This document shows positions 5,140-54,271 of a DNA stretch of 64,000 nucleotides, one piece after another; position 1 is the stretch's first letter; each line of letters begins with the position of its first letter. The notes under the pieces are model-generated. The model did no database searches and was not told where the DNA came from. It saw only the letters and a program-made list of their open reading frames with translations. The translations under genes and the position numbers were made by a program. This DNA comes from an uncultured Gammaproteobacteria bacterium (GTDB taxonomy: Bacteria; Patescibacteriota; Patescibacteriia; Magasanikbacterales; UBA922), in NCBI GenBank assembly GCA_964612105.1, contig CAZTEU010000007.1, positions 21,008 through 85,007 of the forward strand. The letters are read 5' to 3'.

Positions 5140-7558
5140 GTCCGAGCATTAAAAACTCAGTAAATCGCTTTCTTCCGGAACAAAGGAAGCCACGTCCCCA
5201 GTACATTCCGACAACTGTCGGTGCCTAGCTTGGACCTCTGGAATATAAGTAGCAAAATCATGTTACACTCAATCACATATTCTAGATACTCAAGCAGGTA
5301 AGACTACCACATATTTGTCCTACCGCTTTACGCGGTTTTTTTCTTCCCTAATTACCAGTCGTTAGTCTCAGTAATAATTGATTACTAAGATTGTACGGAT
5401 GATAATGACTGATCATTACAATTCAATATCAACAAACAAATGTAAATGTTAAATCTTTAGAAAACACAATTCTGTGTTTTCGTAGTGCGCAATTCAAGAG
5501 CGTACGGTGGATGCCTAGACACGTTTTAACGATGAAGGACGTAGCAACCTGCGAAAAGCTTCGGTGAGGTGGTAAGCAACCTTTGACCCGGAGATCTCCG
5601 AATGGGGGAACCCATGTGGTGTAATGACCACATACCTTATGCCCAATACATAAGCATGAGGGGAAGACCTAGCGAAGTGAAACATCTCAGTAGCTAGAGG
5701 AATAGAAAACAACAAAAGCTTTTTATATTCCATTCTCTTGGTTATTGTCTCGAGCCTTCGGGCAAGAGATAGTGACCATTAGATTGGTAGAAAAGTGTGA
5801 TTCCGTAAGTAGTGGCGAGCGAACGCGGAACAGCCCAAACCTATGTTGTGTTGAGAATGGTACGGTTGTCTTCGGATGATTTAGGCCAAACTCTTAAAGG
5901 ACAGACCGTTGCAATATAGGGGTTGTAGGATACAGTATCGGATATCTGTTATGCCGGACATTATATATTTTGTATAGTCGAATATTACTGGAAAGTAAAA
6001 CCAAAGAAGGTGATAGTCCTGTAGACGAAATGCATTATATATAGTGTGTCTGTACTCCTGAGTAGGGCGGGACACGTGAAATCCCGTCTGAATCTGTCGC
6101 GACTATGCGATAAGGCTAAATATAAAACGTGATCGATAGTGAACCAGTACCATGAGGGAAAGGTGAAAAGCAGCCCGGAGAGGGCGGTGAAATAGTTCCT
6201 GAAACCGTACGTTTACAAAGAGCAGGAGTCCGTAAGGACGACTGTGTTCCTATTGAAGAATGAGCCTGCGAGTATGCTATATGTAGCGAGCTTAAGGACC
6301 TACCAGTCCGAAGGCATAGGGAAACCGAGTCTTAACCGGCGATTTAGTTGCATATACATGACCCGAAACCGAGTGAGCAATCCATGACCAGGTTGAACCC
6401 TAAGTAAGATTAGGGGGAGGACCGAACCCACGCACCGTGCAACATGCGGGGATGAGTTGTGGATAGCGGAGAAATTCTAATCGAACTCGGTAATAGCTGG
6501 TTCTCCTCGAAACAGTTTTAGGACTGGCTGTATGTGTTCCCTCTGGGGGTAGAGCACTGGATGTGGTCGGGGCGGTTCGCCGTACCCACTACAATCAAAC
6601 TCCGAATACCAGAGATTAATAGCATGCAAGTTAGACTGTGGGGGCTAAGCTTCACAGTCGAAAGGGAAACAGCCCAGACCACCAACTAAGGTCCCTAAAT
6701 TAATACTAAGTGTTAAAGGTGGTGTTGATTCTTATACAACCAGGAAGTTGGCTTAGAAGCAGCCATCTTTTAAAGATAGCGTAATAGCTCACTGGTCAAG
6801 AGTCTTCGCGCCGAAAATGTACCGGGGCTAAGTATTATACCGAAGTTGTGGCTTCATATATTATTTATAATGTATGAGGGGTAGAGGAGTATTCTCATCG
6901 CGCCGAAGCCGTATCCGTGAGGAACGGTGGAGCAATGAGAAGTAAGAATGCAGGCACGAGTAGCAAAAATGGGTGTGAAAGTCACCCACGCCGAAAACCC
7001 AAGGTTTCCAGGGCCACGAGAATCGTCCCTGGGTTAGTCGATCCTAAGGCCAGGCCGAAAGGCGTAACCGATGGAAGAGCAGGTTAATATTCCTGCACTT
7101 GGTTGTATGTTGTGAATAGGTGTGCATTTCAAAGATCTGAGCGTTGTATGGCTACACGTCACGCAAGTGGAAGACTGCGATTTCGGTCAAAGTCAATTCA
7201 GGTTGGAGAAGTGCCTAGAAAAGCTTATTCATGTCAAGTACAATCAATCCGTACCGCAAACCGACACAGGTGGGTAGGTCGAGAAGACCAAGGCGCACGA
7301 GAGAAACATTGTTAAGGAACTCGGCAAAACAGCGGCCGTAACTTCGGGATAAGGCCCGCCCCATTTCGGTGGGGCTCAACAAAAGATGTCACGCGACTGT
7401 TTACCAAAAACACAGCTCTCTGCTAAATCGTAAGATGACGTATAGGGGGCGATGCCTGGCCAGTGTCAGAACGTTAAAGGGCGGGGTTATTTCTTCGGAA
7501 AGAAGCTCTAAACTGAAGCGCTGATGAACGCCGGCGGTAACTATAACCGTCCTAAGGT

Positions 7559-8301
7559 CAACTTGTTCATTTCTTGGACAAGTTGAGGACTGGGACGGTT
7601 GTATCAAAGACGCTGCCTCAACTTATAGTAATATAAGATTGGTCCATAAATTGTAGTGATATGCAAGAAAATCCTCAAAAGATTGACGCTACTCATTCAG
7701 CAAAGAATTATTCTGATTGAAGCTGAGTAGTAAAAATGTGTCAGTACACGGGGGCAACTTGCAGGTGCACCATTGCACCTCAGAGACTTATAAACTACTA
7801 TCCTATGACATTAAATCCAAATTGGATAGCCGGATTTGTAGATGGTGAAGGTACCTTTTATATAGGTATCAATAAACAGCCTTCTATGACAGCCGGATAT
7901 CAAGTTTTACCGGAGTTCCGTATCGTTCAACACAAACGTGATATAAAATTGCTTCATCAACTCAGGAAATATTTTGAGTCAGGTGTGGTAAGAGTAAATC
8001 ATGATGATCGATACGAACTTAGAATTCGAAGTCTGGATGAACTACAAAAAGTAGTAATTCCATTCTTTGAAAAATATCCACTTCACACGCAAAAGAAGTT
8101 TGACTTCATTAAGTTCAAGAAAGTAGTTAAATTAATGGGACAAAGAGAACATCTTAGCGCGTCAGGAGTGGTAAAGATCATTGATATAGCGAGTAAAATG
8201 AACAGAGAAGATAAGAAAAAAGCACTTGCGATTAAAGAAATGATCAAAAAGACAGGATAAAGACAAAGTCCATGCTAGCTAGAAATAGTTAGAAGGTCCA
8301 G
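7559..8301 (+). mobile_element. Group I-type intron in 23S (after ...CCTAAGGT, E. coli region about 1917) carrying a homing-endonuclease ORF
   Basis: The exon sequence GGTAACTATAACCGTCCTAAGGT is followed at 7559 by 743 nt of non-rRNA sequence. The exon resumes with AGCGAAATTCCTTGTCGGGT at 8302. The 5' exon ends in T and the intron ends in G. Confidence 0.8.
7805..8260 (+). CDS. LAGLIDADG homing endonuclease (single-motif, I-CreI-like size)
   Basis: LNPNWIAGFVDGEGTFYIGI motif near the N-terminus. About 150 aa. Lies entirely within the 23S intron. Confidence 0.8.
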   Translation: MTLNPNWIAGFVDGEGTFYIGINKQPSMTAGYQVLPEFRIVQHKRDIKLLHQLRKYFESGVVRVNHDDRYELRIRSLDELQKVVIPFFEKYPLHTQKKFDFIKFKKVVKLMGQREHLSASGVVKIIDIASKMNREDKKKALAIKEMIKKTG

Positions 8302-8321
8302 AGCGAAATTCCTTGTCGGGT

Positions 8322-8636
8322 GAATGAAATACTATGCGGGTCACGCAAAAGTATCTCGCCCGAATATTCTGGCAACAGAATACAGCAAACCGACTCATAA
8401 CGGTGAAGCCCTAACTCATAATGGAGAGGGTAATACCGTGGGAAGTCGTTCTGATTTATATCAGAATTGACCCCGTAACGACTGACTCGAAAGAGGAGAC
8501 TCGATATGATAATATAATCGGGTAACACGTCGGCTCTTGCCTCAAAAAGACTTCTACGGAGAAAATTCTCCTACGGATAGTCGGCAAGATGAAGGTATAG
8601 TCTAATCATTATAGTAATATAATGCAATTGGAGTTC
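8322..8636 (+). mobile_element. Second, ORF-less intron in 23S, about 20 nt downstream of the first (boundaries approximate)
   Basis: The 20-nt exon AGCGAAATTCCTTGTCGGGT (8302-8321) is followed by about 315 nt with no rRNA similarity. The exon resumes at ...GAGTTCCGACCCGCACGAATGG (8637 onward). Confidence 0.65.
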
Positions 8637-9147
8637 CGACCCGCACGAATGGCACAACGGTGTGACAACTGTCTTAACAATGTACTCGGCGAAAATGCAA
8701 TTGTCGTGAAGATGCGACATTCACGCAGCAAGACGAAAAGACCCCATGAAGCTTTACTACAGTTTGATATTGATAATTTGCTCTACATGTTCAGCATAGG
8801 TGGGAGCCTTCGGGCACCAGTGAGATACCACCCTTGTATTGTGACTTATCTAACTCTGCACCCTGAATCGGGTATGGGGGACAGTATCTGATGGGTAGTT
8901 TGACTGGGGCGGTGGCCTCCTAAACAATAACGGAGGCGTTTACAAAGGTTAGCTTGGTCCGGATGGAAATCGGACTGGACGTGCAAACGCATAAGCTAGC
9001 TTTACTGCAAGGGCTACCACCCGAGCAGTTACGAAAGTAGAAGTTAGTGATCCGACCGTTCAATATAGGATGGCGGAAGCTCAACGGATAAAAGTTACTC
9101 TGGGGATAACAGGCTGATAGCGCCCAAGCGTCCATAGCGACGGCGCT

Positions 9148-9187
<40 letters not shown>

Positions 9188-9188
9188 A

Positions 9189-9270
<82 letters not shown>

Positions 9271-9610
9271 CTATCTGCTGTGTGCGTTGAATATTGAGGA
9301 AACTCGCCCCTAGTACGAGAGGACCGGGGTGGACGAATCTCTGGTGTACCAGTTGTCCTGCCAAGGGCATAGCTGGGTAGCTAAATTCGGCACGGATAAG
9401 CGCTGAAAGCATCTAAGTGCGAAGCCGTTTCCAAGATTAATATTCGTTTGAGAATCGTTCGAGACTAGGACGTTGATAGGCACCAGGTGTAAGATCTAAC
9501 GATCGTAGCCGAGGTGTACTAATATTTCGAGTGTACTACGGAAACACAGAGTTGTTTTTATTAGATACATTTATATTTTTTGTTGAATAACTCTTCATAC
9601 TGAGTATAGA

Positions 9611-9721
<111 letters not shown>

Positions 9722-9739
9722 TTGTACTCAGTATATAAT

Positions 9740-9767
9740 CCCTGAACCACCCGGTTGAGGGTTTTTT
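9740..9767 (+). terminator. rRNA operon terminator
   Basis: CCCTGAACC-accc-GGTTGAGGG followed by TTTTTT. Confidence 0.6.
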
Positions 9768-9818
9768 GATTATTAAAAATATTTATGATAAAATTCCCCT
9801 ATAATTAAAATAAAGAAT

Positions 9819-10010
9819 ATGGACAAAAGAAAACTGAGCGATGAGCGAGGAGGTAGACAGCCGGAAGAATATCCAATGAATATACCAACCCCACAAATAC
9901 AACCTGCAATTCCTGCAGAAAAACCTGAGCAAGAAATACCGGAAGGTGGGATTCCTGATTTTGAAGAAGTAGCAAAAAGGGATATATTACCACCAATCGC
10001 AGAAGCTTAA
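9819..10010 (+). CDS. Possible small Pro/Glu-rich protein (63 aa)
   Basis: ORF followed by a hairpin AAACTAGCAT-tag-ATGCTAGTTT (10028-10054). No SD and no recognisable domain. Confidence 0.25.
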   Translation: MDKRKLSDERGGRQPEEYPMNIPTPQIQPAIPAEKPEQEIPEGGIPDFEEVAKRDILPPIAEA

Positions 10011-10081
10011 TTTATCTTTTGTTGACAAAACTAGCATTAGATGCTAGTTTTTGTGTACAAACAAAACGCTGGAGGGTTGTT

Positions 10082-10708
10082 ATGAAGTACAAAAGAGAGA
10101 GTATAAGCCTGTCCTGGAGTTCATGGTTTATGGTCTGCGTGGCCACCACCTGCTTCACAGGCTTTCTTCCTTGGCTTGTTAGAAAGAGAGGTAAAGGAGG
10201 GGGGCTGATTGGTTCTGTTGTGGGAGTGGTGATTGTTGCACTGGTCTTCGCTAGCGAGGGATTCTCCGAACCTTCGTTTGTTGTCCTGTGTCTAACCTCC
10301 TTTCTCCTGTGCATCGGAGTCTTTGCTGTGCAGGACGCAGAGAAGGTCATGCTCCTGAAATGGGGTCGCAGACCTCGTCACACTGGCGAGTGTGCGTACC
10401 ACGACTTCAACGAGACGAACATCGACGAGTTTGTGGGGCAGATGATTGCTTTGCTACCGCTTTGCTTTGTGCATGAACACATGCACTTCATCACAGAACT
10501 GCACTTCTATACTCTACTTCTCACTGGCCTCGCTCTTTTTCGTGTGTTCGACACGACGAAGTGGCTTGGCATCTCACGAGTGGAAAAGTGGAGTACCCTA
10601 AACACCGCTCTGCCAATCATGTTTGACGACGTGCTTGCTGGCATTTATGCAGGGATTGTGCTTGTTGTAGCATTCATCTTGCCGACGTGGTATCACTACC
10701 TCACCTGA
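10082..10708 (+). CDS. pgpA: Phosphatidylglycerophosphatase A (PgpA family); G+C-rich
   Basis: IDEFVGQMIAL and the C-terminal DDVLAGIYAGIVL match PgpA motifs (WDEFIGMW, DDIVAGVISAGILY). Multiple TM segments. GGAGGG lies 6 nt upstream of ATG 10082. TTGACA at 10023-10028. Confidence 0.65.
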   Translation: MKYKRESISLSWSSWFMVCVATTCFTGFLPWLVRKRGKGGGLIGSVVGVVIVALVFASEGFSEPSFVVLCLTSFLLCIGVFAVQDAEKVMLLKWGRRPRHTGECAYHDFNETNIDEFVGQMIALLPLCFVHEHMHFITELHFYTLLLTGLALFRVFDTTKWLGISRVEKWSTLNTALPIMFDDVLAGIYAGIVLVVAFILPTWYHYLT

Positions 10709-10811
10709 CGACGAAAACAAACAAATAGGAGACGAAACGACCCCGCTACGAGTAATCAAAGCGGGGTCAGTTGTTTTTAATTACAATTCCTGTTGGGTAA
10801 TGATTAGAGCT
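10706..10811 (+). repeat. Direct repeat copy 1: duplicate of the xth 3' end (last 11 codons, diverged) plus terminator hairpin
   Basis: A 71-nt block (10727-10797) is identical to 11636-11706, with decaying similarity on both sides. Contains CCCCGCT-acgagtaatcaa-AGCGGGG followed by TCAGTTGTTTTT. Confidence 0.85.
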
Positions 10812-10818
10812 TGTTAAG

Positions 10819-10847
10819 TTGACAAAAGCTCCCTAATGTGATAAAAA
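10819..10847 (+). promoter_or_regulatory. Candidate sigma70 promoter for the methyltransferase gene
   Basis: TTGACA (10819-10824), 17-nt spacer, TAAAAA. Followed by a CTCGAG-aatcat-CTCGAG hairpin and AGGAGA 7 nt before ATG 10894. Confidence 0.4.
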
Positions 10848-10893
10848 ATGTGCAGAATTCTCGAGAATCATCTCGAGGTAAGGAGAACAAAAA

Positions 10894-11580
10894 ATGGAAG
10901 GACCAAGACCTCTCACCCAGTGGGAACGATCTGGGGTGGTTAGGGTAGGTTATTTGCGTCAATTTCAGTACATGACGCGGATGTTTGCCAGGGTCGTCAA
11001 ACTCAATGGTGATGTAGTGGAGTGTGGACTCGGAATGGGCGGGACTTTCAACATGCTTGCCTATCTTGTCGGAACTGAAAAACGCCCAAGCAGGACTCTT
11101 TGGGGCTATGACTCCTTCGAGGGTTGGCCCGAGCCGGATACCATAGATGACTCTCCGCGTAAGCCTCAGAAAGGAGAATGGAAAGTGAGCGAGGAGACCG
11201 TCTTGGATCACTTGTCTCAATCGGGTATCAGGACAGAGTTTCCAGACCTTAACTTCAAATTGGTTGGGGGCTACCTCTGCGATACTCTTCCTCAAGCTCC
11301 GGATCGTCCGATTGCCCTTCTGCACATCGATGTTGATCTGTATCAGGGCTATGCAGACGCGCTGCTCCATCTATTCCCGATGGTCGAAGTTGGTGGTATC
11401 GTCATGTTCGATGAATATCTGGAGTTTCCAGATCATCCGGACTACATAGATGATTGTCAACCGATTGAGAAGTGGCCTGGATGCACCAAGGCTGTTGACG
11501 AGTTCTTTGCAGACCGTCCTGAGACTCCCCAGCTATATGAAGAGACAGGAAAATACTACGTCGTGAAGCTTGCGCAGTAG
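10894..11580 (+). CDS. TylF/MycF-family (macrocin-type) SAM-dependent O-methyltransferase; G+C-rich
   Basis: GDVVECGLGMGG, LWGYDSFEGWPEP, GGYLCDTLP and PIALLHIDVDLYQGYADALLHLFPMVEVGGIVMFDEY follow the TylF-family (PF05711-like) motif order. Confidence 0.75.
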   Translation: MEGPRPLTQWERSGVVRVGYLRQFQYMTRMFARVVKLNGDVVECGLGMGGTFNMLAYLVGTEKRPSRTLWGYDSFEGWPEPDTIDDSPRKPQKGEWKVSEETVLDHLSQSGIRTEFPDLNFKLVGGYLCDTLPQAPDRPIALLHIDVDLYQGYADALLHLFPMVEVGGIVMFDEYLEFPDHPDYIDDCQPIEKWPGCTKAVDEFFADRPETPQLYEETGKYYVVKLAQ

Positions 11581-11615
11581 ACTTACCTGCTCACTCTCCG
11601 TTCGAGCATTCAATC

Positions 11616-11720
11616 ACGATGAAAATACAATCCAAAGGAGACGAAACGACCCCGCTACGAGTAATCAAAGCGGGGTCAGTTGTTTTTAATTACAATTCCT
11701 GTTGGGCAATGGTCAGACCC
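11616..11720 (+). repeat. Direct repeat copy 2: native xth 3' end plus terminator, 909 bp downstream of copy 1
   Basis: See copy 1. This copy is contiguous with the intact xth gene on the minus strand. Confidence 0.85.
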
Positions 11721-12488
11721 CATTACCTTAGGAAGAATAAAAGCGTCTTTTATGTGTTTTTTAAATTTGCCGGAGACGCAGAAATAATCGATTCTCCAAC
11801 CCACATTTCTTTCTCTTGCTTTTGCCCAGTGTGACCACCATGTGTACAACTCTGGCTTATCTCCCTCTATTAACCTAAGAGTATCCACAAAACCTGCCTT
11901 AACAAAGTTATCAAAACCCTCACGCTCTTCTTTTGTAAAACCCTTGTTTCCTTCATTCTGTTTTGGTCTCGCAAGATCTATAGGTTTGTGGGCAACATTT
12001 AGGTCTCCACAAAATATTACAGGCTTTTTCTTTTCTAATATCTTACAGTGTTTGAGAAACATCTTATCCCATTTTTTGTGACGAAAACCTAAACGAGATA
12101 AATCATCTTTTGCATTAGGCGTGTAAACAGTTACTAAAAAAAACTTATCATACTCAGCAGTAATAACTCTCCCTTCTTGTGCTACATCACGACCCTGCTT
12201 ATCCAAAAGTTTTTTTGTTTTTTGTACTCCAGAAATAAAATCGTTTGTAACATTAACAGGTTTTATTTTTGTAAAAATAGCAGTGCCTGAATAACCTTTC
12301 TTTTCTGCAGAGTTCCAAAACTCTTCGTACTCCGGCAAATCTATGACAACCTGCTCTCTATGTGCCTTTGTTTCTTGTAAACAAACAATATCTGGTTTAT
12401 ATTTTTTTATAAATTTCTGGAACTCTCCTTTTCTTATTACAGCTCTTAGTCCATTAACATTCCATGATAATATTTTGATATTTTTCAT
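11676..12488 (-). CDS. xth: Exodeoxyribonuclease III (Xth/ExoIII family AP endonuclease)
   Basis: N-terminal MKNIKILSWNVNGLRA, ...IVCLQETK..., and C-terminal SDHCP. Confidence 0.9.
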   Translation of the reverse strand: MKNIKILSWNVNGLRAVIRKGEFQKFIKKYKPDIVCLQETKAHREQVVIDLPEYEEFWNSAEKKGYSGTAIFTKIKPVNVTNDFISGVQKTKKLLDKQGRDVAQEGRVITAEYDKFFLVTVYTPNAKDDLSRLGFRHKKWDKMFLKHCKILEKKKPVIFCGDLNVAHKPIDLARPKQNEGNKGFTKEEREGFDNFVKAGFVDTLRLIEGDKPELYTWWSHWAKARERNVGWRIDYFCVSGKFKKHIKDAFILPKVMGSDHCPTGIVIKNN

Positions 12489-12608
12489 ATACATTAAGGG
12501 TATCACATACAATTTTTACAAACAAATCTTTTGTTATCCACAAGATTATTGCGATTTTTTTTCTTTGAGTGTATAGTCTAAATCATAATAAAAAACAGAC
12601 ATAAAAAT

Positions 12609-13044: not shown

Positions 13045-15435
13045 ATGTATCCAGAACCTCTGTCTCAATATTTACTTAAGCACCTGTCAAATCACCCAGA
13101 ACAGCGAGAGCTTATAATGATAATAAGTGATCTTGCCCGTATTGGTAAAACAATTTCACATCACACAAACAAAGCAGGTCTAGTAGGTATCTTAGGGTCT
13201 GCTGGTAATACGAATATACAAAATGAAGAAGTTCAGAAATTAGATGTCTTTGCAAATAACTTATGCAAAGATATTTTAAAAAACAGTGAACACATTGCTG
13301 CCCTTGCTTCTGAAGAAGAAGATACCGTTGTAGACATGTCTCAACACGGAAGTAATGCAAAATACATTGTTGCTTTTGATCCACTAGATGGATCCACAAA
13401 TATAGATGTAAACGTTAGTATTGGTACAATTTTTTCTGTAATGAAAAAAAGAGAAGATGTAGAACGCACAGATGAAAGGCAATTCTTACAGACTGGAAGA
13501 GAGCAGGTGCTTGCAGGATATATATTGTATGGCTCCAGCACAGTTCTAGTGTTCACGTTTGGAGATGGTGTGCATGAGTTTACATTAGATCCAGACACAA
13601 AAGATTTTTATCTCTCAAACGAAAGAATTACAATTCCAGACAAATGTCCTTACTACAGTATAAATGAGAAAAACATGAGGTATATGACAGAAAAGGACAG
13701 AAATTTTGTAGAAAGCCTTAAGACAGAAAAAGGGTGTGGCGGAAGGTATATAGGCTCTCTTGTTGCAGATATTCACAGGACACTTATAAAAGGAGGTGTG
13801 TTTCTATACTCGGCAATAGATAAAAAAGGTGAAGGGGAATACAAGGGAAAGCTCAGATTAAATTATGAGCTAAAGCCTATGGCATTTTTGATAGAACAAG
13901 CAGGGGGGTTGGCAATTGACGGAGAAAGGAATATACTCGATATTACACCGACCAAACTACATGAAAGGACGCCTATTATAGCAGGAAACAAAAATATAAT
14001 TGAAGATTATTTAATAAATAATAATATGTCTGAGGAATCATACAAGGACCTAAACTCACAGCAAGAGGTTGAATCTCTTGTAAAGGAATCATGTGCAGTT
14101 GGTTTTGATGGAATCAACTCAATTAATGATCAGCAAAAATTACAAGACGATACGATCAAAAGCCTAGCATACAATGCAAGTGTAAGTGAAAATCCAGAAG
14201 TAAAGAAAGCGTCTATATTTTGGATTAATAAGATCGCAGACTTCCTAAAAATAGAATCAGCATCAAATTCAGAGTACTACCAGAAAAAAGCGAATGGAGA
14301 CGACCAATTCTTCACTGTGCCTGCTGTTAACAGTAGAATGGTCACATTTCACACAGTACGCTCAGCTGTACGCTCAGCAGATAAACTAAATATCCCTCAT
14401 CTAATACTAGAATTAGCACTTAGTGAGGTTGGGTACACAGGTCAACAAAAAGACGAGTATTCTGCATTGTGTAAGGCAGCATATATTTCCTTGGGACTAA
14501 AGAACCGTAAAGTATATGTACAAGCGGATCACTACCAGCTTGATCCCAAAAAATATGCAATAGACAAGGATGCTGAGATGCAGAGGATAAAAGACGCTAT
14601 TACAAAAGCAATAGAAAATGGAGTGTATAACATAGATTTAGACTCATCCAAGTTCGAAACAGCAGACCCTAATAAATCAGACAGAGAAAATCAGGGGGAG
14701 AATGCAAGGCTTACAGTTGAACTACTTCATTTTATCCGTAGCTACGAGAAAAGCAAGAATATCCCATCTGTTAGTGTTGGAGGAGAGGTTGGAGAAGTTG
14801 GTGGAGAAAATACAAAATACCCCCAAGTTAATGCTTACCTAGATATGGTTTCAGAACACATGACTAATCTTGGTGCAGGACATGAGAGGGGTCTAGACAA
14901 GATAAGTATCAATGTTGGTTCTGCACATGGGGGAGTGTTAGGCCCAGACGGACAGCCATTAGATGTTGTTCCTCTAGATTTCACAGCTCATCATGATTTG
15001 TTTATGTTTGGAAAAGATCCAATGAACCCAGGTAGGCATGTTTTGGCTGTACAGCACGGAGCTTCTACTCTTCCAAAAAGATACTTCTCACTATTTCCAG
15101 CAATGCATGTTGCAGAAGTTCACTTAGCTACAGGTTTCCAGAATGTTATTTGGGAAGTTTTAGAAAAACACGATAGTGTGTTGTACGAAAAAATGAAAAC
15201 AATGACGTTTGATAAGTTTGGAGATAAGATAGCTGGACACAAAACAGAAGCTATTGGGTTTATGAAAGAAAGAAAACGTGTTACAGAGTTTGTTAAAAAA
15301 GAATTGTTAATGTCTGGAGCCGTAGAAGAAATAGAAAAGGCATTAGATAATGAATTTACAGCAATCTTCCACTCATTATATAACCTATTACAACCAAAAG
15401 CAGGTATTGTTGTAGAAGGTGACAGGTCAGATTAA
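13045..15435 (+). CDS. Fusion protein: class I fructose-1,6-bisphosphatase (N-terminal, about 330 aa) joined to a class II fructose-bisphosphate aldolase-like domain (C-terminal, about 450 aa)
   Basis: FBPase: YIVAFDPLDGSTNIDVNVSIGTIFSV, GYILYGSSTVLVF, RYIGSLVADIHRTLIKGGVFLY, GKLRLNYELKPMAFLIEQAGG. Aldolase II: FTVPAVNS...IPHLILELALSE, VQADHY, NIDLDSS, VGGEVGEVGGEN, INVGSAHGG, VQHGAST, in canonical order. Confidence 0.7.
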   Translation: MYPEPLSQYLLKHLSNHPEQRELIMIISDLARIGKTISHHTNKAGLVGILGSAGNTNIQNEEVQKLDVFANNLCKDILKNSEHIAALASEEEDTVVDMSQHGSNAKYIVAFDPLDGSTNIDVNVSIGTIFSVMKKREDVERTDERQFLQTGREQVLAGYILYGSSTVLVFTFGDGVHEFTLDPDTKDFYLSNERITIPDKCPYYSINEKNMRYMTEKDRNFVESLKTEKGCGGRYIGSLVADIHRTLIKGGVFLYSAIDKKGEGEYKGKLRLNYELKPMAFLIEQAGGLAIDGERNILDITPTKLHERTPIIAGNKNIIEDYLINNNMSEESYKDLNSQQEVESLVKESCAVGFDGINSINDQQKLQDDTIKSLAYNASVSENPEVKKASIFWINKIADFLKIESASNSEYYQKKANGDDQFFTVPAVNSRMVTFHTVRSAVRSADKLNIPHLILELALSEVGYTGQQKDEYSALCKAAYISLGLKNRKVYVQADHYQLDPKKYAIDKDAEMQRIKDAITKAIENGVYNIDLDSSKFETADPNKSDRENQGENARLTVELLHFIRSYEKSKNIPSVSVGGEVGEVGGENTKYPQVNAYLDMVSEHMTNLGAGHERGLDKISINVGSAHGGVLGPDGQPLDVVPLDFTAHHDLFMFGKDPMNPGRHVLAVQHGASTLPKRYFSLFPAMHVAEVHLATGFQNVIWEVLEKHDSVLYEKMKTMTFDKFGDKIAGHKTEAIGFMKERKRVTEFVKKELLMSGAVEEIEKALDNEFTAIFHSLYNLLQPKAGIVVEGDRSD

Positions 15436-22654: not shown

Positions 22655-23809
22655 ATGAATCTATACGAATTTGAAGGAAAAAATATTTTTAGTAAATTCG
22701 ACATCTCTATTCCAAAGGGTTTTAACGTAAAAAGAGGAGAAGATGTTATTTTGGAATATAATAGTTTAGGAGTTACAGATGTTGTAGTAAAAGCACAGGT
22801 ATTGTCTGGAAAAAGAGGGAAGAATAATGCTATATTGTTTTGTTCATCAGCAGAAGAAACCTCTCAGGCAGTAAAAGACCTTTTCAATATGGATGTGCGC
22901 GGACAGTATGTTGCATCTGTAAGAGTAGAAGAAAAATTAAACATTATAGAAGAACACTATCTCTCCATCACTTATGATACAAATGGTAAACAGCTGATAC
23001 TTGTGTACTCTGCAGAAGGTGGGGTGGATATAGAAGATGTTCCGGATGAAAAAATACAGAAAATTCATTTAGACATAAGGAGTGAAAATCCAGACAATCT
23101 CCCAAACGAGTGTAAAGAAGTGGCACAGAAGCTTTGGAAGTGTTTTTTAGATAGCGACACACGTCTTGTGGAAATAAATCCACTTGTAAAAACAGAAAAG
23201 GGAGATTGGGTTGCAGCAGACGCAAAAATTGCGATAGATGATGATGCTTTCTTTAGGCATGATGAGTGGAAAGCTTTAGAGCCAAGAACAATGATGGGTC
23301 GCCCACCAACAGAACGAGAGGTTTCGGTAAAAGAAATAGATAAAGGAGAGGGGTATTATCGTGGTACAGCTGGAAAATATATAGAGATGGATGGTGATAT
23401 AGCTGTGCTTTTCTCTGGGGGTGGTGCAAGTATTGCAAACATGGACGAGCTACAAAAAAATGGTTTGTCTGCATCTAACTATACAGAATACTCTGGAAAC
23501 CCTCCTCAGGAAAAAGTATACGAATTAGCAAAGATAGTACTATCTAAACCCGGACTAAAAGGATTATGGATTGCAGGAGGAGTTTCTAACTTTACAGACG
23601 TAGGTGCAACCTTTGCTGGAATTATACAAGCACTAGATGAGATTAAACCAAAATATCCAATTGTTATTCGTCGTGCTGGTGTAAATGAAAAAGAAGGTAT
23701 GAGATTAATGAGAGAGTGTGGCGAAAGAAATAATCTCAACATAAAATACTTTGGTAAGGAAATTTCAATGGGCGAGACAGCAGGTGAGTTAGCAAAAATG
23801 ATAAATTAA
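22655..23809 (+). CDS. sucC: Succinyl-CoA synthetase beta-subunit-like (ATP-grasp) protein
   Basis: MNLYEFEGKNIFSKF N-terminus typical of SucC. Length 384 aa. Confidence 0.8.
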   Translation: MNLYEFEGKNIFSKFDISIPKGFNVKRGEDVILEYNSLGVTDVVVKAQVLSGKRGKNNAILFCSSAEETSQAVKDLFNMDVRGQYVASVRVEEKLNIIEEHYLSITYDTNGKQLILVYSAEGGVDIEDVPDEKIQKIHLDIRSENPDNLPNECKEVAQKLWKCFLDSDTRLVEINPLVKTEKGDWVAADAKIAIDDDAFFRHDEWKALEPRTMMGRPPTEREVSVKEIDKGEGYYRGTAGKYIEMDGDIAVLFSGGGASIANMDELQKNGLSASNYTEYSGNPPQEKVYELAKIVLSKPGLKGLWIAGGVSNFTDVGATFAGIIQALDEIKPKYPIVIRRAGVNEKEGMRLMRECGERNNLNIKYFGKEISMGETAGELAKMIN

Positions 23810-23810
23810 T

Positions 23811-24707
23811 ATGGGAATACTAATAGATAACAATACAAAAGTATTAATACAGGGAATTACAGGTAAAGAAGGGCAGAAGGCTGCAAAATCTATGTTAGAT
23901 TATGGTACAAATGTTGTTGGTGGAGTACGTCCAGGAAAAGGTGGTGAAGAGGTGCTTGGTAAACCTGTGTTTAACACAGTTGCAGAAGCAATGGAAGAGT
24001 TTCCAGACATAACAACATCAGCTATCTATGTACCCCCGTTTGCTGCAAAGGGTGCAATAATGGAGGCTATAGACTCTGGTATTTCATACATTAACACAAT
24101 TATTGAGCGTATACCTATAAAAGACACTGCATATTGCTTGGCAATGGCAAAAGAAAAAGGAACAAAAATAATTGGCCCCAGCTCACTTGGTTATATTACT
24201 CCAGGTGTTGGAAGATTGGGTGTTGTTGGTGGACCGAAAACTTCTGCAGATGAAGTTTTTACTCCGGGAAGCATAGGAATAATTTCACGTTCTGGTGGAA
24301 TGACGAATGAGGTATCATGGCAGGTGCGCAAGGCCGGCATGGGTCAGAGTACAGCTGTGCATGTAGGTGGAGATCTTTTAATGGGTACAACTTATGCAGA
24401 TCTCTTAAAACTTTTTGAAAAAGATGAACAAACAAAAGCTGTAATTATTTTTGGAGAGCACGGAGGTAGTTATGAATTTGAAATTGTTGATCTAATAAAT
24501 AATAAGGAATATACAAAACCTCTTGCTGTATATGTTGGGGGAAAGTTTGCAAACATATTCCCAGAGGGAATGGATATAGGGCATGCTGGTGCTATAGTTG
24601 CTCCGGGACAGGGGGCAGAGGAAAAAGAAAAAGCTCTTGGAGAAGTTGGGGTTATGATTGCAGAACATTACGAACAACTTGCAGAACTAATTAAACCATA
24701 TTCATAA
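23811..24707 (+). CDS. sucD: Succinyl-CoA synthetase alpha-subunit-like (CoA-binding) protein
   Basis: KVLIQGITGKEGQ, and a phosphohistidine-loop region in SRSGGMTNEVS...VGGD. Confidence 0.8.
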   Translation: MGILIDNNTKVLIQGITGKEGQKAAKSMLDYGTNVVGGVRPGKGGEEVLGKPVFNTVAEAMEEFPDITTSAIYVPPFAAKGAIMEAIDSGISYINTIIERIPIKDTAYCLAMAKEKGTKIIGPSSLGYITPGVGRLGVVGGPKTSADEVFTPGSIGIISRSGGMTNEVSWQVRKAGMGQSTAVHVGGDLLMGTTYADLLKLFEKDEQTKAVIIFGEHGGSYEFEIVDLINNKEYTKPLAVYVGGKFANIFPEGMDIGHAGAIVAPGQGAEEKEKALGEVGVMIAEHYEQLAELIKPYS

Positions 24708-24718
24708 TAATTATACGT

Positions 24719-25459
24719 ATGAAATACACCACAAAGATAACAGATATAAAAGATGGCAAGGAGGCAATAAGAGGATATGATTTATCAGAGTTAGCACAGA
24801 AAAAGAGTTTTGTAGAAACTATCTTTCTTCTCCTAAAAGGAGACCTTCCAGATGAAAACGAGACAAAAATGATGAATGTACTTTTTACCTCTGCTATAGA
24901 CCATAGCCCTGGTACAGCAAGTGCTAATACTGCGCGTATTGTTGCGTCTGCAAAGAATAGTTTGCACGTAGGTGTTTCTGCAGGTATTTTGGCTATGGGT
25001 GAGAGGCACGGTAGCGCAATAGAAGGTTCTGCAAAGTTTTTTCAAGAAAACAAAGACGAAAAAGATATTGCAGATTTAGTTATGAAACTAAAGGAACAGA
25101 AAGTGCGTGTACCAGGATATGGACACCCAACCTTGTCAAAAGATCACAGGAGTGATACAATTTTTTCCGTTGCAAAAGACACAGGTATATATGGAAAACA
25201 CTGTACATTTGCAGAAAGCTTTCACAAAGAGCTTAACAACGCCTCTTCTAAAGAATTACCTATTAATATAGATGGGGCAATGGCAGCAGTACTATCAGAT
25301 ATGGGGTTTGATTGGGGTATCATGAAAGGATTTTTCATAATAGCACGTGTTCCAGGATTAGTAGCACAGACGTATGAGGAGTTGACAAATGATAAAGGAA
25401 TACGTAGAGTTGCACAAGAAGAAATAGAATACACAGGAGAAACAGACAGAAAATTATAA
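24719..25459 (+). CDS. Citrate-synthase-family small protein (citryl-CoA-lyase-like C-terminal domain only)
   Basis: AIDHSPGTASANTARIVAS, GERHGSA, VPGYGHPTLSKDHR (the GFGHRVYK..DPR signature) and INIDGA...FFIIARVPGLVAQTYEE align with the catalytic half of citrate synthase. Confidence 0.6.
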   Translation: MKYTTKITDIKDGKEAIRGYDLSELAQKKSFVETIFLLLKGDLPDENETKMMNVLFTSAIDHSPGTASANTARIVASAKNSLHVGVSAGILAMGERHGSAIEGSAKFFQENKDEKDIADLVMKLKEQKVRVPGYGHPTLSKDHRSDTIFSVAKDTGIYGKHCTFAESFHKELNNASSKELPINIDGAMAAVLSDMGFDWGIMKGFFIIARVPGLVAQTYEELTNDKGIRRVAQEEIEYTGETDRKL

Positions 25460-26208: not shown

Positions 26209-26442
26209 TTATCTTTTTTTACGACGAGTTGTTTTACGACGCGTAGTCTTTCTCTTTGTTGTCTTACGTTTTGCTGGTTTGCGTTTCTTTGTAGCTTTAC
26301 GCTTCGCAGGTTTACGCTTTTTAGCAGTTTTACGTTTTTTTGGAGCAGCTTTTTTCTTACGTTTTGCTGGTTTGCGTTTCTTTGTAGCTTTACGCTTCGC
26401 AGGTTTACGCTTTTTAGCAGTTTTACGTTTTTTTGCAGGCAT
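26209..26442 (-). CDS. Highly basic Lys/Arg/Ala/Pro-repeat protein (histone H1/Hc1-like, 78 aa) containing a 93-bp tandem duplication
   Basis: MPAKKRKTAKKRKPAKRKATKKRKPAKRK repeated twice (DNA repeat unit at about 26268 and 26361). GAGGAG upstream of the ATG. The longer listed ORF is a 5' extension. Confidence 0.5.
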   Translation of the reverse strand: MPAKKRKTAKKRKPAKRKATKKRKPAKRKKKAAPKKRKTAKKRKPAKRKATKKRKPAKRKTTKRKTTRRKTTRRKKR

Positions 26443-26660
26443 ATTTTTATTTCTCCTCTCTATGGATTGAATACGTGTAACTTTGATATGACCATGGTAC
26501 ATGCCAAATGGCATTACACATACAACACGTTAACACGACAAGCATCGATGTGAACATGCTTCGACCTTTTACAATATTATAATCTTTTTTTTTGCTTTTT
26601 TATATACTTAACATTCAAAAACTGTGCATAACTTTTACAAAAATATTTTTTTAAAAAAAT

Positions 26661-28308: not shown

Positions 28309-30972
28309 ATGAGGAACGTCACATTTGAGAGGAAGGCTGCTGCGCTCTTCGCGTTGGTAGTTGTTTTCAACATGGGGGGGTGTATCGACACCTTCTCCGA
28401 AGCAGAACAGGACCACTTGGTTTGTCTGCAGAGCACAAAAGGGTGTGATGCAGAATCCGAGGACGGCAGTATCGACGGAAGTTCTGTCGATGCCGATGAT
28501 GCATACGAGGATTCTAATGACACGCACCTGGACGCAACACCTGACAGCTCTGTGCTGGATGGTGGAGAAGATGGGTTCGTGGATGTGGAAGACTCGCAGG
28601 ATGATGCTGGAAGTGATTCCGGTGACACGCACCAAGATGCCGATGATGTGACCGATGACGCAGTGGACTCCCCAGATACGTTCACCACCGTGGTGGACAA
28701 CTGCAAGGGAGTAAACTGTGACGATGGGAACGTCTGCACAAACGACTCATGCAATTCTGTGGACGGATCATGCACCAACACGCACAACTCCGCCGACTGC
28801 GACGATGAAAATGTCTGCACATTGAATGACTTCTGCGAGGGGGGCTTTTGCATCTCCGGAATAGACAAAAAGTGTCCGGACGAAGGCAATCCCTGCACTG
28901 ACGAATCCTGCGACCAGAAGAAGGGCTGTGTTTCACTGCCCAACTCTGCGACTTGCACGGATGGGAATGCCTGCACTACCGCCGACACCTGCACGAACGG
29001 AAAATGCACCCCTCAGGGGGCGAAAGACTGCAATGATGGTGACAAGTGCACAAGTGACTCGTGCGACATCTTCAGTGGTTGTGAGCATGTCAGCAAGTCT
29101 GGAGAGTGCGACTGTGAGTTCGATGTCGACTGCATCGACAAGAATCCGTGTACTACGGACTCGTGCAAGGACAAAAAGTGCCAGTATGGATTCGCGGACA
29201 ACGAAGACTGCACAGATGACGGGCCGTGCACTGAGCCGAAGGGCAAGTGCAAGTCTGGCAAGTGTGTTGTTAAACTGAAGTCCTGCGACGACGACAACCC
29301 CTGCACTAACGACTCCTGCGACCAGAAGAAGGGCTGTGTTTCATTGCCCAACTCTGTGACTTGCACGGATGGGAACGCCTGCACGAAGGGTGACATCTGC
29401 AAGGATGGATCCTGTCAGAAAGGTTCTCCAGTTGCTTGCGACGACGATAACCCCTGCACCAGCGACAGCTGTGACACCAGCACCGGTAAGTGCTTGTTCA
29501 AGAAGGAGAAAGAGTGCTTAGGGCACAACAAGTGCACAAAACACAGCGATTGCCTTGCGAAAGGCAGTAAGTTCGTTGGTTGCTGGGATGTAAGCACTAT
29601 CCAGAACTCGCAGAGCCTTGGCTATTGCCAGAAGAAATACGGTGATGTGGGGAGCAAGTGCCTCTTCGAACTCATCGGTGAGAAGAAGCCCTGTAGTGAC
29701 GGCTTAGCCTGCACTCTTGATCTATGTAATACAGGCAAGGGGTGTGTCGTTGAACTCTTGCAGCACGATAAGTGCGATGACGGCAATGTCTGCACCAACG
29801 ACTCCTGCGACCAGAAGAAGGGCTGTGTTTCACTGCCCAACTCTGCGCCCTGCGATGACGGTGACAAGTGTACGGAGAATGACAAGTGCGCAGACAAGAA
29901 GTGTGTTGCGGGTACCCCAGTTACTGGCTGCATTGCATGCAAGGAAGATAAGGACTGCGAGGACGATGATATCTGCACTGCTGACTTCTGTTTCGGGGAC
30001 AGCGGATGCAAATACAAGCCCTCTCCACCCCTGACATCTTGTGACGACAGCAACCTTTGTACGGTTGGTGACACCTGTAAGGACAGCAAATGTACGAGTG
30101 GTAAGAAGAAGGTCTGCAATGACTCCAACCCCTGCACCAACGACTCCTGCAACAAGGACAAGGGGTGTGTCTATCTACCCAATTCTGCTACTTGCACAGA
30201 TGGAAGTGTCTGCACTCTGTCTGACCAATGCAAGGACAGCAAATGCTCTCCAGGTACCACGAAAGACTGCAACGACTCCAACCCCTGCACCAATGATTCA
30301 TGTGACAAAGTAAAAGGCTGTCTGCACAGCTCCAACACTGCGTCCTGCGATGACGGTGACAAGTGCACGGAGAACGACAAGTGTGCAGACAAGAAGTGTG
30401 TTGCGGGTAAAGCGACGCAGTGCGACGACAAAGATCCATGCACAGCTGATTCTTGTGACAGCAAGACAGGTAAGTGCAAGTTCCAGATGACTTGCAAGAT
30501 GATGAAGGCTTCAATCGAGCTCAAGACCACCAACGCCTGGTGGGAAGAGTTTGGTAAGGCCGGCGTCATGGCGCGGATTTCCGGTACTTGTAGCATTACG
30601 CTTTCTAGTGGCAAAAAACAGTCGCTTTGGAGTCTTGGTGTAGATTTCGCGCAAGCGAAGGCACCTCTACGCTGTCAGAATGGGGTTGTGTGTGGTGGAC
30701 AGGTTTCGCCTACTATCGTATTGGAAGCAGATGTTCTCGAGAAGTCGCATTCCCTGAAGTGTGACAAGGTCCAGGGATATCAGTACACAACCCTCAGTCC
30801 TTCTAGCTTCTTCAGCTCCATGAGCGGTCAGGCTGTTATGAAGGCTGGCACCTTCGGGACCAAGTTCACTGCCAAGGTCGGTAACTGCGAGGAGAAAGTC
30901 AAGTCATACACCAAGGTGTCAGACGGAAACGGCAATCTAGCCATCGCTTTCACTGCGTGTAAAAAACCATAA
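28309..30972 (+). CDS. Secreted/lipoprotein-like giant Cys-rich repeat protein: acidic N-terminal region, then about 30 or more tandem Dictyostelium-type (Dicty_CTDC-like) CxxC...C repeats, then a distinct C-terminal domain of about 150 aa; G+C-rich
   Basis: Signal peptide MRNVTFERKAAALFALVVVFNMGGC. Repeats such as CDDGNVCTNDSCNSVDGSCTNTHNSADCDDENVCTLNDFC and CTDGNACTTADTCTNGKC with a period of about 24 aa. GAGGAGA upstream of the ATG. Confidence 0.6.
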   Translation: MRNVTFERKAAALFALVVVFNMGGCIDTFSEAEQDHLVCLQSTKGCDAESEDGSIDGSSVDADDAYEDSNDTHLDATPDSSVLDGGEDGFVDVEDSQDDAGSDSGDTHQDADDVTDDAVDSPDTFTTVVDNCKGVNCDDGNVCTNDSCNSVDGSCTNTHNSADCDDENVCTLNDFCEGGFCISGIDKKCPDEGNPCTDESCDQKKGCVSLPNSATCTDGNACTTADTCTNGKCTPQGAKDCNDGDKCTSDSCDIFSGCEHVSKSGECDCEFDVDCIDKNPCTTDSCKDKKCQYGFADNEDCTDDGPCTEPKGKCKSGKCVVKLKSCDDDNPCTNDSCDQKKGCVSLPNSVTCTDGNACTKGDICKDGSCQKGSPVACDDDNPCTSDSCDTSTGKCLFKKEKECLGHNKCTKHSDCLAKGSKFVGCWDVSTIQNSQSLGYCQKKYGDVGSKCLFELIGEKKPCSDGLACTLDLCNTGKGCVVELLQHDKCDDGNVCTNDSCDQKKGCVSLPNSAPCDDGDKCTENDKCADKKCVAGTPVTGCIACKEDKDCEDDDICTADFCFGDSGCKYKPSPPLTSCDDSNLCTVGDTCKDSKCTSGKKKVCNDSNPCTNDSCNKDKGCVYLPNSATCTDGSVCTLSDQCKDSKCSPGTTKDCNDSNPCTNDSCDKVKGCLHSSNTASCDDGDKCTENDKCADKKCVAGKATQCDDKDPCTADSCDSKTGKCKFQMTCKMMKASIELKTTNAWWEEFGKAGVMARISGTCSITLSSGKKQSLWSLGVDFAQAKAPLRCQNGVVCGGQVSPTIVLEADVLEKSHSLKCDKVQGYQYTTLSPSSFFSSMSGQAVMKAGTFGTKFTAKVGNCEEKVKSYTKVSDGNGNLAIAFTACKKP

Positions 30973-31151: not shown

Positions 31152-31227
31152 GGGCCTGTAGCTCAGTGGTTAGAGCACAACGCTTATAACGTTGGGGTCG
31201 GCGGTTCAATTCCACCCAGGCCTACCA
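31152..31227 (+). tRNA. tRNA-Ile with anticodon UAU (AUA-decoding); CCA encoded
   Basis: GGGCCTG-TA-GCTC-AGTGGTTA-GAGC-A-CAACG-CTTATAA-CGTTG-GGGTC-GGCGG-TTCAATT-CCACC-CAGGCCT-A-CCA. Anticodon loop positions 34-36 are TAT, with A37. The body closely resembles the E. coli tRNA-Ile1 scaffold. Confidence 0.8.
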
Positions 31228-38497: not shown

Positions 38498-39301
38498 TCA
38501 GCTACGGTTTTTGCCGAAAGTGACGTAAACGAGTGTCCCTTCGCTACTGCTGATTACCCTTCGCCCGGCATGCTTAATCTCGGGCGATGTTTTGACGCGA
38601 CGCTGGCGCTTGGTTTTGGAAGACTTTTTCTCCGGGAAGTGACCTTTGAGGTCCTTCGGTCTTTTCGCGGGGAGTGTGCGATCCCACAGTCGTCTCGCAA
38701 CATCTCGGAGACTTTCTGGGGTTGTGTCTTCCTTTTTCAGGCGGATATGCCGAGCTTCTTCTTCAGCGTCAAGCAGTGTGCGCATGAGCCATTCAGCATC
38801 CAGCCCAAGCTCTCTTGGGTTGTATCTGATAACTCTAGACAGCGCAAATGCACAGATTCTTCCCAAATGGCTGACAGCCAAATGGCGAGTGACTCTGGTG
38901 GAGTCTTCTCTGTTGTGCACATGCATGAGCAGTCTTACGCATCTGGAAAGGCTGTCTTTCCGGAGCCTATGGTCAAGCGCATCGCTTCCTCGGAAGAGGC
39001 ATCGGTATGCGTACCAGTTAAGCTCCGCAAGGAACATGATGAGAGGAACAGGGAGGTCGCCAGGGGGCGTCCTCAGGATCTTTGACTCGATATTACCAAT
39101 CAGGCCACAGGCCAGCATGGTAACTCCGGTCTTGATCTGGTTGTGTTCCGGTATCGGACCAATCAAGATTCTCAACTTGTTGATCATCGATTCCGGATCG
39201 TTTCTCCTTCCCCGTATGCGCCTTATTGCGCATGCATTTGGGGTGGTGTGCACATCTTCCAGGTAGGCAACCACGCCCACCCGAGAGTGTTCGTGGTTCA
39301 T
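38498..39301 (-). CDS. Hypothetical protein (267 aa), G+C-rich, basic C-terminal tail; possible Rx4-6H (HEPN-like) motif, unverified
   Basis: GGAGG lies 5 nt before ATG 39301. TTGACA-N17-TTAAAT on the minus strand (+strand TGTCAA 39350-39355). The overlapping plus-strand ORFs are judged spurious (G+C-rich sequence). Confidence 0.45.
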   Translation of the reverse strand: MNHEHSRVGVVAYLEDVHTTPNACAIRRIRGRRNDPESMINKLRILIGPIPEHNQIKTGVTMLACGLIGNIESKILRTPPGDLPVPLIMFLAELNWYAYRCLFRGSDALDHRLRKDSLSRCVRLLMHVHNREDSTRVTRHLAVSHLGRICAFALSRVIRYNPRELGLDAEWLMRTLLDAEEEARHIRLKKEDTTPESLRDVARRLWDRTLPAKRPKDLKGHFPEKKSSKTKRQRRVKTSPEIKHAGRRVISSSEGTLVYVTFGKNRS

Positions 39302-52649: not shown

Positions 52650-52676
52650 AAAATCCTCGTATATACGAGGATTTTG
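52650..52676 (+). terminator. Rho-independent terminator after eno (26-nt perfect palindrome)
   Basis: AAAATCCTCGTATA/TATACGAGGATTTT. Confidence 0.7.
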
Positions 52677-52691
52677 AGTTATAATAATTCC

Positions 52692-54251: not shown

Positions 54252-54271
54252 TATGATATTCTAACGAAACT

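Follow-up and report, generated by a model that had tools for sequence, protein, structure and literature searches.

A single methyltransferase gene between direct repeats of the xth 3′ end is polymorphic in a near-clonal Patescibacteria population

Introduction

How does a lone gene come to sit between two copies of the tail of its neighbour, and how is it gained or lost where no recombinase is found beside it? This question is raised by a 64-kb window (the whole stretch of DNA analysed here, to which our scans for recombinases and repeats apply) of the low-G+C (~37%) genome of an uncultured member of the Patescibacteria, or candidate phyla radiation (CPR). In this window a gene for a TylF-like O-methyltransferase lies between pgpA (phosphatidylglycerophosphatase A family) and the convergent xth gene (exodeoxyribonuclease III), bracketed by direct repeats that duplicate the 3′ end of xth together with a hairpin. 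A first reading of the DNA, hereafter the original prediction, attributed this arrangement to single-crossover (Campbell-type) integration of a circular element or to a very long target duplication. Composition and phylogeny have mostly been the basis for deducing gene gain in the tiny genomes of Patescibacteria; in the present case one near-clonal wild population shows a lone gene both present and absent, with junctions exact to the base.

Results

The cassette is bracketed by two hybrid copies of the xth tail

A repeat search of the window returned a direct repeat of 82 nt and 96% identity (10727-10808 and 11636-11717) with a spacing of 909, which BLAST and MAFFT extended to approximately 10707-10808 versus 11615-11717 (103 columns, 91% identity). 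Within it lies a core of 71 nt (10727-10797 and 11636-11706) with zero differences. Beyond the core, the right flank matches at 8 of 11 positions (p about 0.002), and similarity in the left flank of ~20 nt is likewise above chance (p about 0.005-0.045). The 71-nt identity, the period of 909 and the similarity beyond the core, all of them features of the original prediction, were thus recovered by repeat search, BLAST and flank statistics. The count of substitutions between the copies that it had called for gave 0/71 in the core versus 10/31 in the flanks (Fisher p = 2e-6), a contrast that fits either hybrid sites of the attL/attR type or repeats homogenised by recombination.

The core includes the final 10 codons and the stop codon of xth, which is full length. 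Translation of the minus strand agrees with the earlier assignment of copy 2 as the genuine xth tail plus hairpin terminator and of copy 1 as a diverged, stranded tail: copy 2 yields the authentic xth end (...LPKVMGSDHCPTGIVIKNN), whereas copy 1 yields a pseudo-tail (...FVNLTSSNHYPTGIVIKNN, ...SNHYPTGIVIKNN, ...SSNHYPTGIVIKNN). The pattern of the xth tail (DHCP[TV]G...) agrees with the tails of relatives. Overlapping the xth stop codon, the core also holds a hairpin, GACCCCGCT-N12-AGCGGGGTC, that is followed on the plus strand by a T-run, which in copy 1 reads AGTTGTTTTTAATT. A consensus terminator scan skipped this hairpin because its loop is longer than 8 nt. Judging from the hairpin and the T-run, the predicted terminator can end transcription from both directions, and in the filled allele (the one that carries the cassette) the hairpin of copy 1 probably serves as the intrinsic terminator of pgpA.

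When up to 3 mismatches were tolerated, each of two sub-patterns of the core had exactly two occurrences in the 64 kb and none in shuffled sequence, and the core pair is the sole long dispersed direct repeat of the window, the remaining long repeats being intragenic tandem repeats. No copy of the core was found at the xth loci of 80 relatives, nor was the repeat found in the viral, plasmid and phage collections. The repeat is not a dispersed element, as the original prediction required, and with exactly two copies in 64 kb and none at the 80 loci, a miniature inverted-repeat transposable element (MITE) or a repeat of the repetitive extragenic palindromic (REP) type was rejected.

Near-identical genomes carry an exact empty site

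Public assemblies were looked up with the exact xth, pgpA and 63-aa proteins (the last encoded between the 5S rRNA gene and pgpA), and many contigs of the same population were returned. The filled arrangement occurs in 13 independent assemblies (JGI, ENA and Logan) that are 100% identical to the window over 9600-12600. In three assemblies pgpA is joined to xth via a single repeat copy, which is the empty site that the original prediction had said to look for (L008/L111, a 35.6-kb contig of JGI 3300007759; L097, ENA ERZ23499038, the contig being present in two samples; and L116, JGI 3300009375). The empty junction consists exactly of the left flank of copy 1, the 71-nt core and the right flank of copy 2. 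Accordingly, the empty contigs show 0 mismatches per 50 nt on each side when compared to the outer flanks of the two copies, versus 29-35 mismatches per 50 nt when compared to the inner flanks, and the repeat is present twice in filled genomes and once in L008, L097 and L116. Apart from the site itself, a single nucleotide polymorphism in ~13 kb separates L008 from the window, and the empty contigs belong to the same near-clonal population (99.98% identity). Because exact empty sites occur in near-identical genomes, the 909-bp segment is a real presence/absence polymorphism in a nearly clonal natural population. An assembly artefact was considered and rejected, the filled form being base-for-base identical in the 13 independent assemblies.

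Some contigs of the population deserve separate mention. L100, L094, L099, L098, L012 and L010 end at window positions 10780, 10781, 10744, 10756, 11636 and 11677, respectively, all inside or at the edge of the core; such breaks are expected from a branching assembly graph and are compatible with the coexistence of both alleles in those samples. In L098 (Logan SRR8062342_887574), the 5S rRNA gene has 13 substitutions, all in its first 65 nt (window 9612-9676), and the contig is otherwise identical; a second 5S allele or a chimeric join may account for them. L101 (ENA ERZ23498901 scaffold_20963) has CCC instead of CCCC in the xth tail at the equivalent of window position 11718, just outside the repeat, a frameshift that swaps ...GSDHCPTGIVIKNN for ...GLTIAQQEL and removes the catalytic His. 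This alternative xth C-terminus (L101/P0121) was set aside as a probable assembly error, the low-quality contig also having an 11-nt deletion that splits the gene for a fused fructose-1,6-bisphosphatase (FBPase) and aldolase. Similarly, the apparent decay of pgpA and of the methyltransferase gene in JGI gene tables (192/199 aa, or absent) was discarded as a matter of gene-caller differences, the DNA being 100% identical.

The cargo is a single methyltransferase gene of foreign composition

The unique part of the cassette (~10809-11614, ~800 nt) holds one open reading frame (ORF) only, whose product scores 93.9 bits against PF05711 (cut-off 23). Its matches in PDB comprise NovP (2wk1, E = 7e-17), MycF and CalS11; the alignments cover the acidic metal-site stretches D-x-D-L-Y and D-[DE]-Y, and in the one with NovP, HIDVDLYQG pairs with RMDGDLYES and FDEY with VDDY. 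On the strength of these alignments, the cargo is predicted to be an intact sugar O-methyltransferase of the TylF/MycF/NovP type. It shares the family PF05711 with these enzymes but is short (228 aa), lacking the N-terminal part of the antibiotic-pathway enzymes, and stands alone instead of in a biosynthetic cluster. The gene has a GC of 0.51 and a G+C content at third codon positions (GC3) of 0.53, compared to a GC3 of 0.22-0.33 for 20 native genes, and the composition of the cassette is foreign.

Upstream of the gene, a promoter-like TTGACA-N17-TAAAAA was omitted by a consensus scan, its second hexamer ending in A and not in T, and we treat this putative cassette promoter only as a lead. A leader hairpin built of two TCTCGAG palindromes, with a folding energy of -11.3 kcal/mol (z = -3.45), is a possible operator or leader stem-loop.

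In a search of 5.8 billion proteins, the nearest homologues of the methyltransferase were 56-62% identical, and all were from Patescibacteria. In 4/4 neighbourhoods they lie in surface-glycan clusters, together with NeuB, a DegT aminotransferase, sugar epimerases, glycosyltransferases, Wzy and a flippase; direct repeats flanking the homologue were found in none of these four Patescibacteria neighbourhoods. Because its homologues belong to Patescibacteria and reside in surface-glycan clusters, the cargo is probably a glycan sugar methyltransferase that came from another, more G+C-rich Patescibacteria lineage. The methyltransferase protein had no match in viral_contigs, and the whole cassette had none among plasmids and phages (distant blastn). 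Exact scans with the 30-nt core hairpin returned 0 hits in viral_contigs and 0 in metagenome_contigs, a collection evidently without the samples of the JGI contigs that carry the core.

pgpA appears to be a separate acquisition in a variable interval

The compositional anomaly reported for this region is real and extends to pgpA (GC 0.50, GC3 0.59), so that the two genes span a GC3 of 0.53-0.59 versus 0.22-0.33 for native genes; xth, with a GC3 of 0.28, is a native gene. For pgpA, no homologue closer than 43% identity was found. All empty-site contigs (L008, L097 and L116) retain the gene, and because it is present in filled and empty alleles alike, it would be a separate acquisition that arrived earlier than the methyltransferase gene. 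Neither gene occurs within 6 kb of xth in any of the relatives (0/80). Both results support the earlier suspicion of two successive acquisitions at this site. No repeat copy lies upstream of pgpA in the window (3 mismatches allowed).

Three additional genes of foreign composition (GC3 0.57-0.63, versus 0.22-0.33 for native genes) were noted in the window: a 164-aa ORF (o164, 212-706) adjoining tRNA-Leu (10-92); a gene for an 887-aa Cys-rich protein with nine Dicty_CTDC repeats (28309-30972) adjoining tRNA-Ile (31152-31227); and a 267-aa ORF (o267, 38498-39301) with no family match. No long flanking direct repeats were found at any of these three genes.

The closest xth and methyltransferase homologues come from metagenome-assembled genomes of Patescibacteria, Saccharibacteria and Paceibacteria. 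Like the interrupted 23S rRNA gene and the local gene order described below, they assign the window to the Patescibacteria. The databases searched hold no species-level relatives: xth finds its next match at 76% identity in the 5.8-billion-protein set and at 72% in genome_contigs, and the xth tails of relatives have no DNA similarity to either of the two flank types. Two relatives, L013 and L017, retain the wider synteny, that is, the 107-aa ORF, xth, a variable stretch, 5S and 23S. The interval between xth and 5S holds lgt, thiamine pyrophosphokinase and a solute symporter in L013, and two blocks of 65-72% G+C (6900-7400 and 7700-8400) in L017 (CAZMHV010000002.1), whose genome has ~37% G+C; the ORFs of these blocks had no Pfam match, and the blocks had no Rfam match. 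The xth-5S interval is therefore variable among relatives. The original view of the xth 3′ end as an insertion hotspot is borne out in part: the content of the interval differs in two relatives, but neither long repeats nor a duplication of the xth tail was found at the xth loci of L013 and L017.

The order of genes around the islet, by which we mean the 909-bp segment, is 5S rRNA, 63-aa ORF, pgpA (plus strand), TylF-like methyltransferase (plus), xth (minus), 107-aa ORF and the fused FBPase-aldolase gene; the coordinates are collected in Table 1.

Table 1. Positions of the islet, its parts and the adjoining genes in the 64-kb window.
Feature	Position	Strand	Remarks
63-aa ORF	9819-10010		between 5S rRNA and pgpA
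pgpA, phosphatidylglycerophosphatase A family	10082-10708	+	Pfam PF04608, E = 4e-19
Repeat copy 1, attL-like	10707-10808		left flank chromosomal 10707-10726, core 10727-10797, right flank element-type 10798-10808
Hairpin of copy 1	10739-10768		9-bp G+C stem, 12-nt loop
909-bp segment missing from empty-site genomes	10798-11706		equivalently 10727-11635; can be placed anywhere in the core register
Promoter-like site inside cassette	10819-10847	+	TTGACA, 17 nt ending TGa, TAAAAA; read from sequence
Leader hairpin, 8 bp	10859-10878	+	TCTCGAGA-ATCA-TCTCGAGG
Ribosome-binding site AGGAG	10881-10885	+	directly after leader hairpin
TylF-like sugar O-methyltransferase, 228 aa (predicted)	10894-11580	+	Pfam PF05711, E = 1e-26
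Repeat copy 2, attR-like	11615-11717		left flank element-type 11615-11635, core 11636-11706, right flank chromosomal 11707-11717
Hairpin of copy 2	11648-11677		same sequence as hairpin of copy 1
xth, exodeoxyribonuclease III	11676-12488	-	TIGR00633, 290 bits

Discussion

Insertion-duplication as the favoured mechanism

We favour, with a probability of roughly 0.55, the interpretation that this one-gene islet arose from a Campbell-type insertion-duplication and is gained and lost via host recombination. The islet would have inserted at the convergent pgpA/xth junction and duplicated ~102 nt of the target, namely the last xth codons, the shared hairpin terminator and ~30 nt beyond. Each of the two hybrid repeats has one chromosomal and one element flank, as expected for the product of one reciprocal crossover with a circle, and this single crossover would have joined the chromosome to a circular DNA bearing a look-alike of the xth tail and its terminator. 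The cassette and all window ORFs of at least 120 aa were negative for integrases, transposases and other recombinase families, and because of this the most likely catalyst would be host homologous recombination acting on the 71-nt identity. The donor DNA would probably have entered by natural transformation; in naturally competent bacteria, laboratory transformation routinely yields insertion-duplications. Loss would proceed by recombination or slippage between the direct repeats, exactly restoring the empty site, and the filled allele could spread by ordinary allelic replacement via the long flanking homology. The direction of the recent change can only be proposed; a deletion across the repeats would yield the same sequence as the ancestral empty site. 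The duplication would preserve xth and provide one terminator copy each for pgpA and the methyltransferase gene, and the outcome would be a population on/off polymorphism for probable surface-glycan methylation.

Five points weigh against this interpretation. (i) The hybrid flanks and the exact empty site are as the original prediction of single-crossover integration would have them, but no contig contains the junction of element-left flank, core and element-right flank that is expected of a circle or a tandem, and the mechanism is put forward on the former evidence. (ii) No donor was found: the cassette and the hairpin are unmatched in viral, plasmid, phage and JGI contig collections, and no methyltransferase closer than 62% was found among the 5.8 billion proteins. 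(iii) The presence on the circle of a look-alike of a species-specific xth tail is unexplained, the tails of relatives being dissimilar in DNA. (iv) A perfect 71-nt block beside flanks that are ~30% diverged needs an extra homogenising step, which could consist of repeated in-and-out cycles or of gene conversion between the copies. (v) Our view of the genome covers ~64 kb, and an integrase unlinked to the window is possible.

Alternative explanations

The last of these points leads to site-specific recombination by an enzyme encoded elsewhere, whereby the cassette would be a decayed or minimal integrative element, either similar to a cis-mobilizable element (CIME) or dependent on a host Xer-type enzyme, with an att site that mimics the xth 3′ end. 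Direct repeats over the 3′ end of a housekeeping gene, with the gene restored, are the classic layout of integrase-borne islands; the hybrid flanks and the exact empty site conform to it, and a sharply bounded block of identity with decaying flanks is reminiscent of the common cores of attP and attB. CIMEs are decayed integrative and conjugative elements (ICEs) or integrative and mobilizable elements (IMEs); they need the integrase of a related element at the same site, and by definition they keep attL and attR while their integration genes are lost (PMC5704250). The islet thus resembles integrase-borne islands and CIMEs in having att-like repeats that extend over the 3′ end of a housekeeping gene and restore it, and CIMEs in being without integration genes. 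Unlike CIMEs, however, it has a single gene as cargo, and its unique DNA amounts to only ~800 nt in which there are no gene remnants, those of mobility genes included. Neither an integrase or recombinase nor a cognate element was found in the cassette or the window, and no related element was found elsewhere. Moreover, the inverted repeat of the core, whose arms are 12 nt apart, looks like a terminator and unlike core-type sites paired about an overlap of 6-8 bp. We consider site-specific recombination unlikely, although it deserves to be kept in mind.

A similarly low chance is assigned to an old insertion under concerted evolution, in which the flanks would have drifted, gene conversion would keep the 71 nt identical and the empty alleles would be recent deletions. 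Flank divergence of ~30% beside a perfect core is indeed what is expected of conversion tracts in old repeats. Moreover, filled and empty alleles are near-identical, implying that the last event was very recent, and deletion between 71-nt repeats is frequent; filled alleles predominate (13 assemblies versus 3), and there is no detectable donor. Yet the cargo still has a GC3 of 0.53 against 0.22-0.33 for the host, contrary to a very long residence, and the cassette is found in no relative, which is a weak test given that the nearest xth is only 76% identical. This scenario would alter only the timing and direction of events, as the founding event would still be an insertion-duplication.

The homogenised core could also be accommodated by a bolder form of the insertion-duplication hypothesis, which we offer as speculation with somewhat slimmer prospects than either of the preceding scenarios. 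Here the cassette and its ~103-nt look-alike of the xth tail would form a minimal recombinase-less mobile cassette that repeatedly enters and leaves by host recombination, with the 71-nt block as the footprint of this cycling, and would act as a population on/off switch of surface-glycan methylation, for example to vary phage or host-cell recognition.

Duplication of the target site, whether through filling-in of a staggered cut (transposon-like or illegitimate) or through slippage at insertion, would also leave direct repeats bracketing the insert, and a very long target duplication was the second option of the original prediction. Copies made in this way would be uniform in age, in conflict with a core of 0/71 beside flanks of 10/31 differences (p = 2e-6), and the very long target duplication is rejected on these grounds. 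Terminal inverted repeats and a transposase are both missing, the lone ORF being that of the methyltransferase, and a duplication of ~100 nt far exceeds the target duplications of transposases known to us; we regard such an origin as very improbable.

Finally, an integron-like array without integrase (cluster of attC sites lacking integron-integrases, CALIN), with pgpA and the methyltransferase gene as cassettes each followed by an attC-like hairpin repeat, is hardly credible: the layout of gene, repeat, gene and repeat, the foreign and co-oriented genes, the extended imperfect hairpin into which the repeat folds and a GTTGGGY heptamer fitting GTTRRRY at the right edge of the core speak for it, but the native coding tail of xth makes up the right third of the repeat and matches the pattern of relatives, copy 1 is without the pairing RYYYAAC heptamer of an inverse core, a third repeat upstream of pgpA and an intI in the window are both absent, the methyltransferase gene has a promoter-like site of its own, and a single GTTRRRY is expected by chance in ~200 nt about 1 time in 5.

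Relation to known systems

Insertion-duplication accommodates the islet without the need for a new kind of system, since repeat-flanked islets at gene 3′ ends and the products of insertion-duplication are well known. As in Campbell-type mutagenesis, a direct duplication brackets the insert, the copies are hybrid, no recombinase of the element is needed and reversal restores the site. In contrast to Campbell-type mutagenesis, the islet is a natural event in an uncultured member of the Patescibacteria, with ~102 nt of homology (71 of them identical) and a circular donor that we infer. A natural counterpart is the H47 genomic island of Escherichia coli (Azpiroz and Lavina), which has no recombinase gene and is flanked by extensive imperfect direct repeats (PMC5426353). 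It excises as a circle and re-integrates by host functions only, excision being RecA-independent by polymerase chain reaction (PCR) (PMC5426353). H47 and the islet are both small, recombinase-less and repeat-flanked. They differ in that H47 measures 13 kb and has several homology blocks per repeat, whereas the islet measures 0.9 kb and has one 71-nt block, and in that excision of H47 was shown by PCR, whereas mobility of the islet is deduced from the population polymorphism.

What is unusual is the setting, in which the genomes of a near-clonal CPR population differ by a single-gene cassette that has no recombinase. The locus offers a concrete case, open to testing, of gene flux without a recombinase at a site made up of a terminator and a gene tail. 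Should the cargo methylate a surface glycan, as the neighbourhoods of its homologues suggest, the polymorphism could mark strain-level variation of the cell surface, and such variation might in turn affect host attachment or phage adsorption.

Other features of the window

Several features of the window that lie outside the islet were recorded. Upstream of the 5S rRNA gene (9613-9719), the 23S rRNA gene (5481-9542) is ~4.06 kb long compared to a model of 2.9 kb and is thus interrupted by intervening sequence, one insert of which encodes a LAGLIDADG homing endonuclease (ORF 7736-8260); a 16S gene is absent from the window. At the far end, an ORF of more than 2190 aa that starts at 57426 runs off the window and has no family match. 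A 93-nt tandem duplication in perfect register (92% identity) lies at 26259-26444, and 108-nt tandem repeats (45716-46113) lie within the gene for a 1577-aa surface-type protein with TSP3, fn3 and Ig-like domains.

The remaining observations concern central metabolism. Cofactor-independent phosphoglycerate mutase is encoded as two tandem paralogues (525 and 531 aa; 52674-55867) within a run of GAPDH, PGK and enolase genes. The FBPase-aldolase fusion beyond xth is one ORF of 796 aa (13045-15435) that combines the N- and C-terminal domains of fructose-1,6-bisphosphatase with a class II fructose-bisphosphate aldolase domain, and the fusion is kept in every contig of the population. Lastly, three adjoining genes at 22655-25459 resemble the parts of ATP-citrate lyase or of citryl-CoA synthetase plus lyase, with the domains ATP-grasp_2 and Citrate_bind, CoA_binding and Ligase_CoA, and the C-terminal domain of citrate synthase in this order, a set that is unusual in a metabolically reduced Patescibacteria genome.

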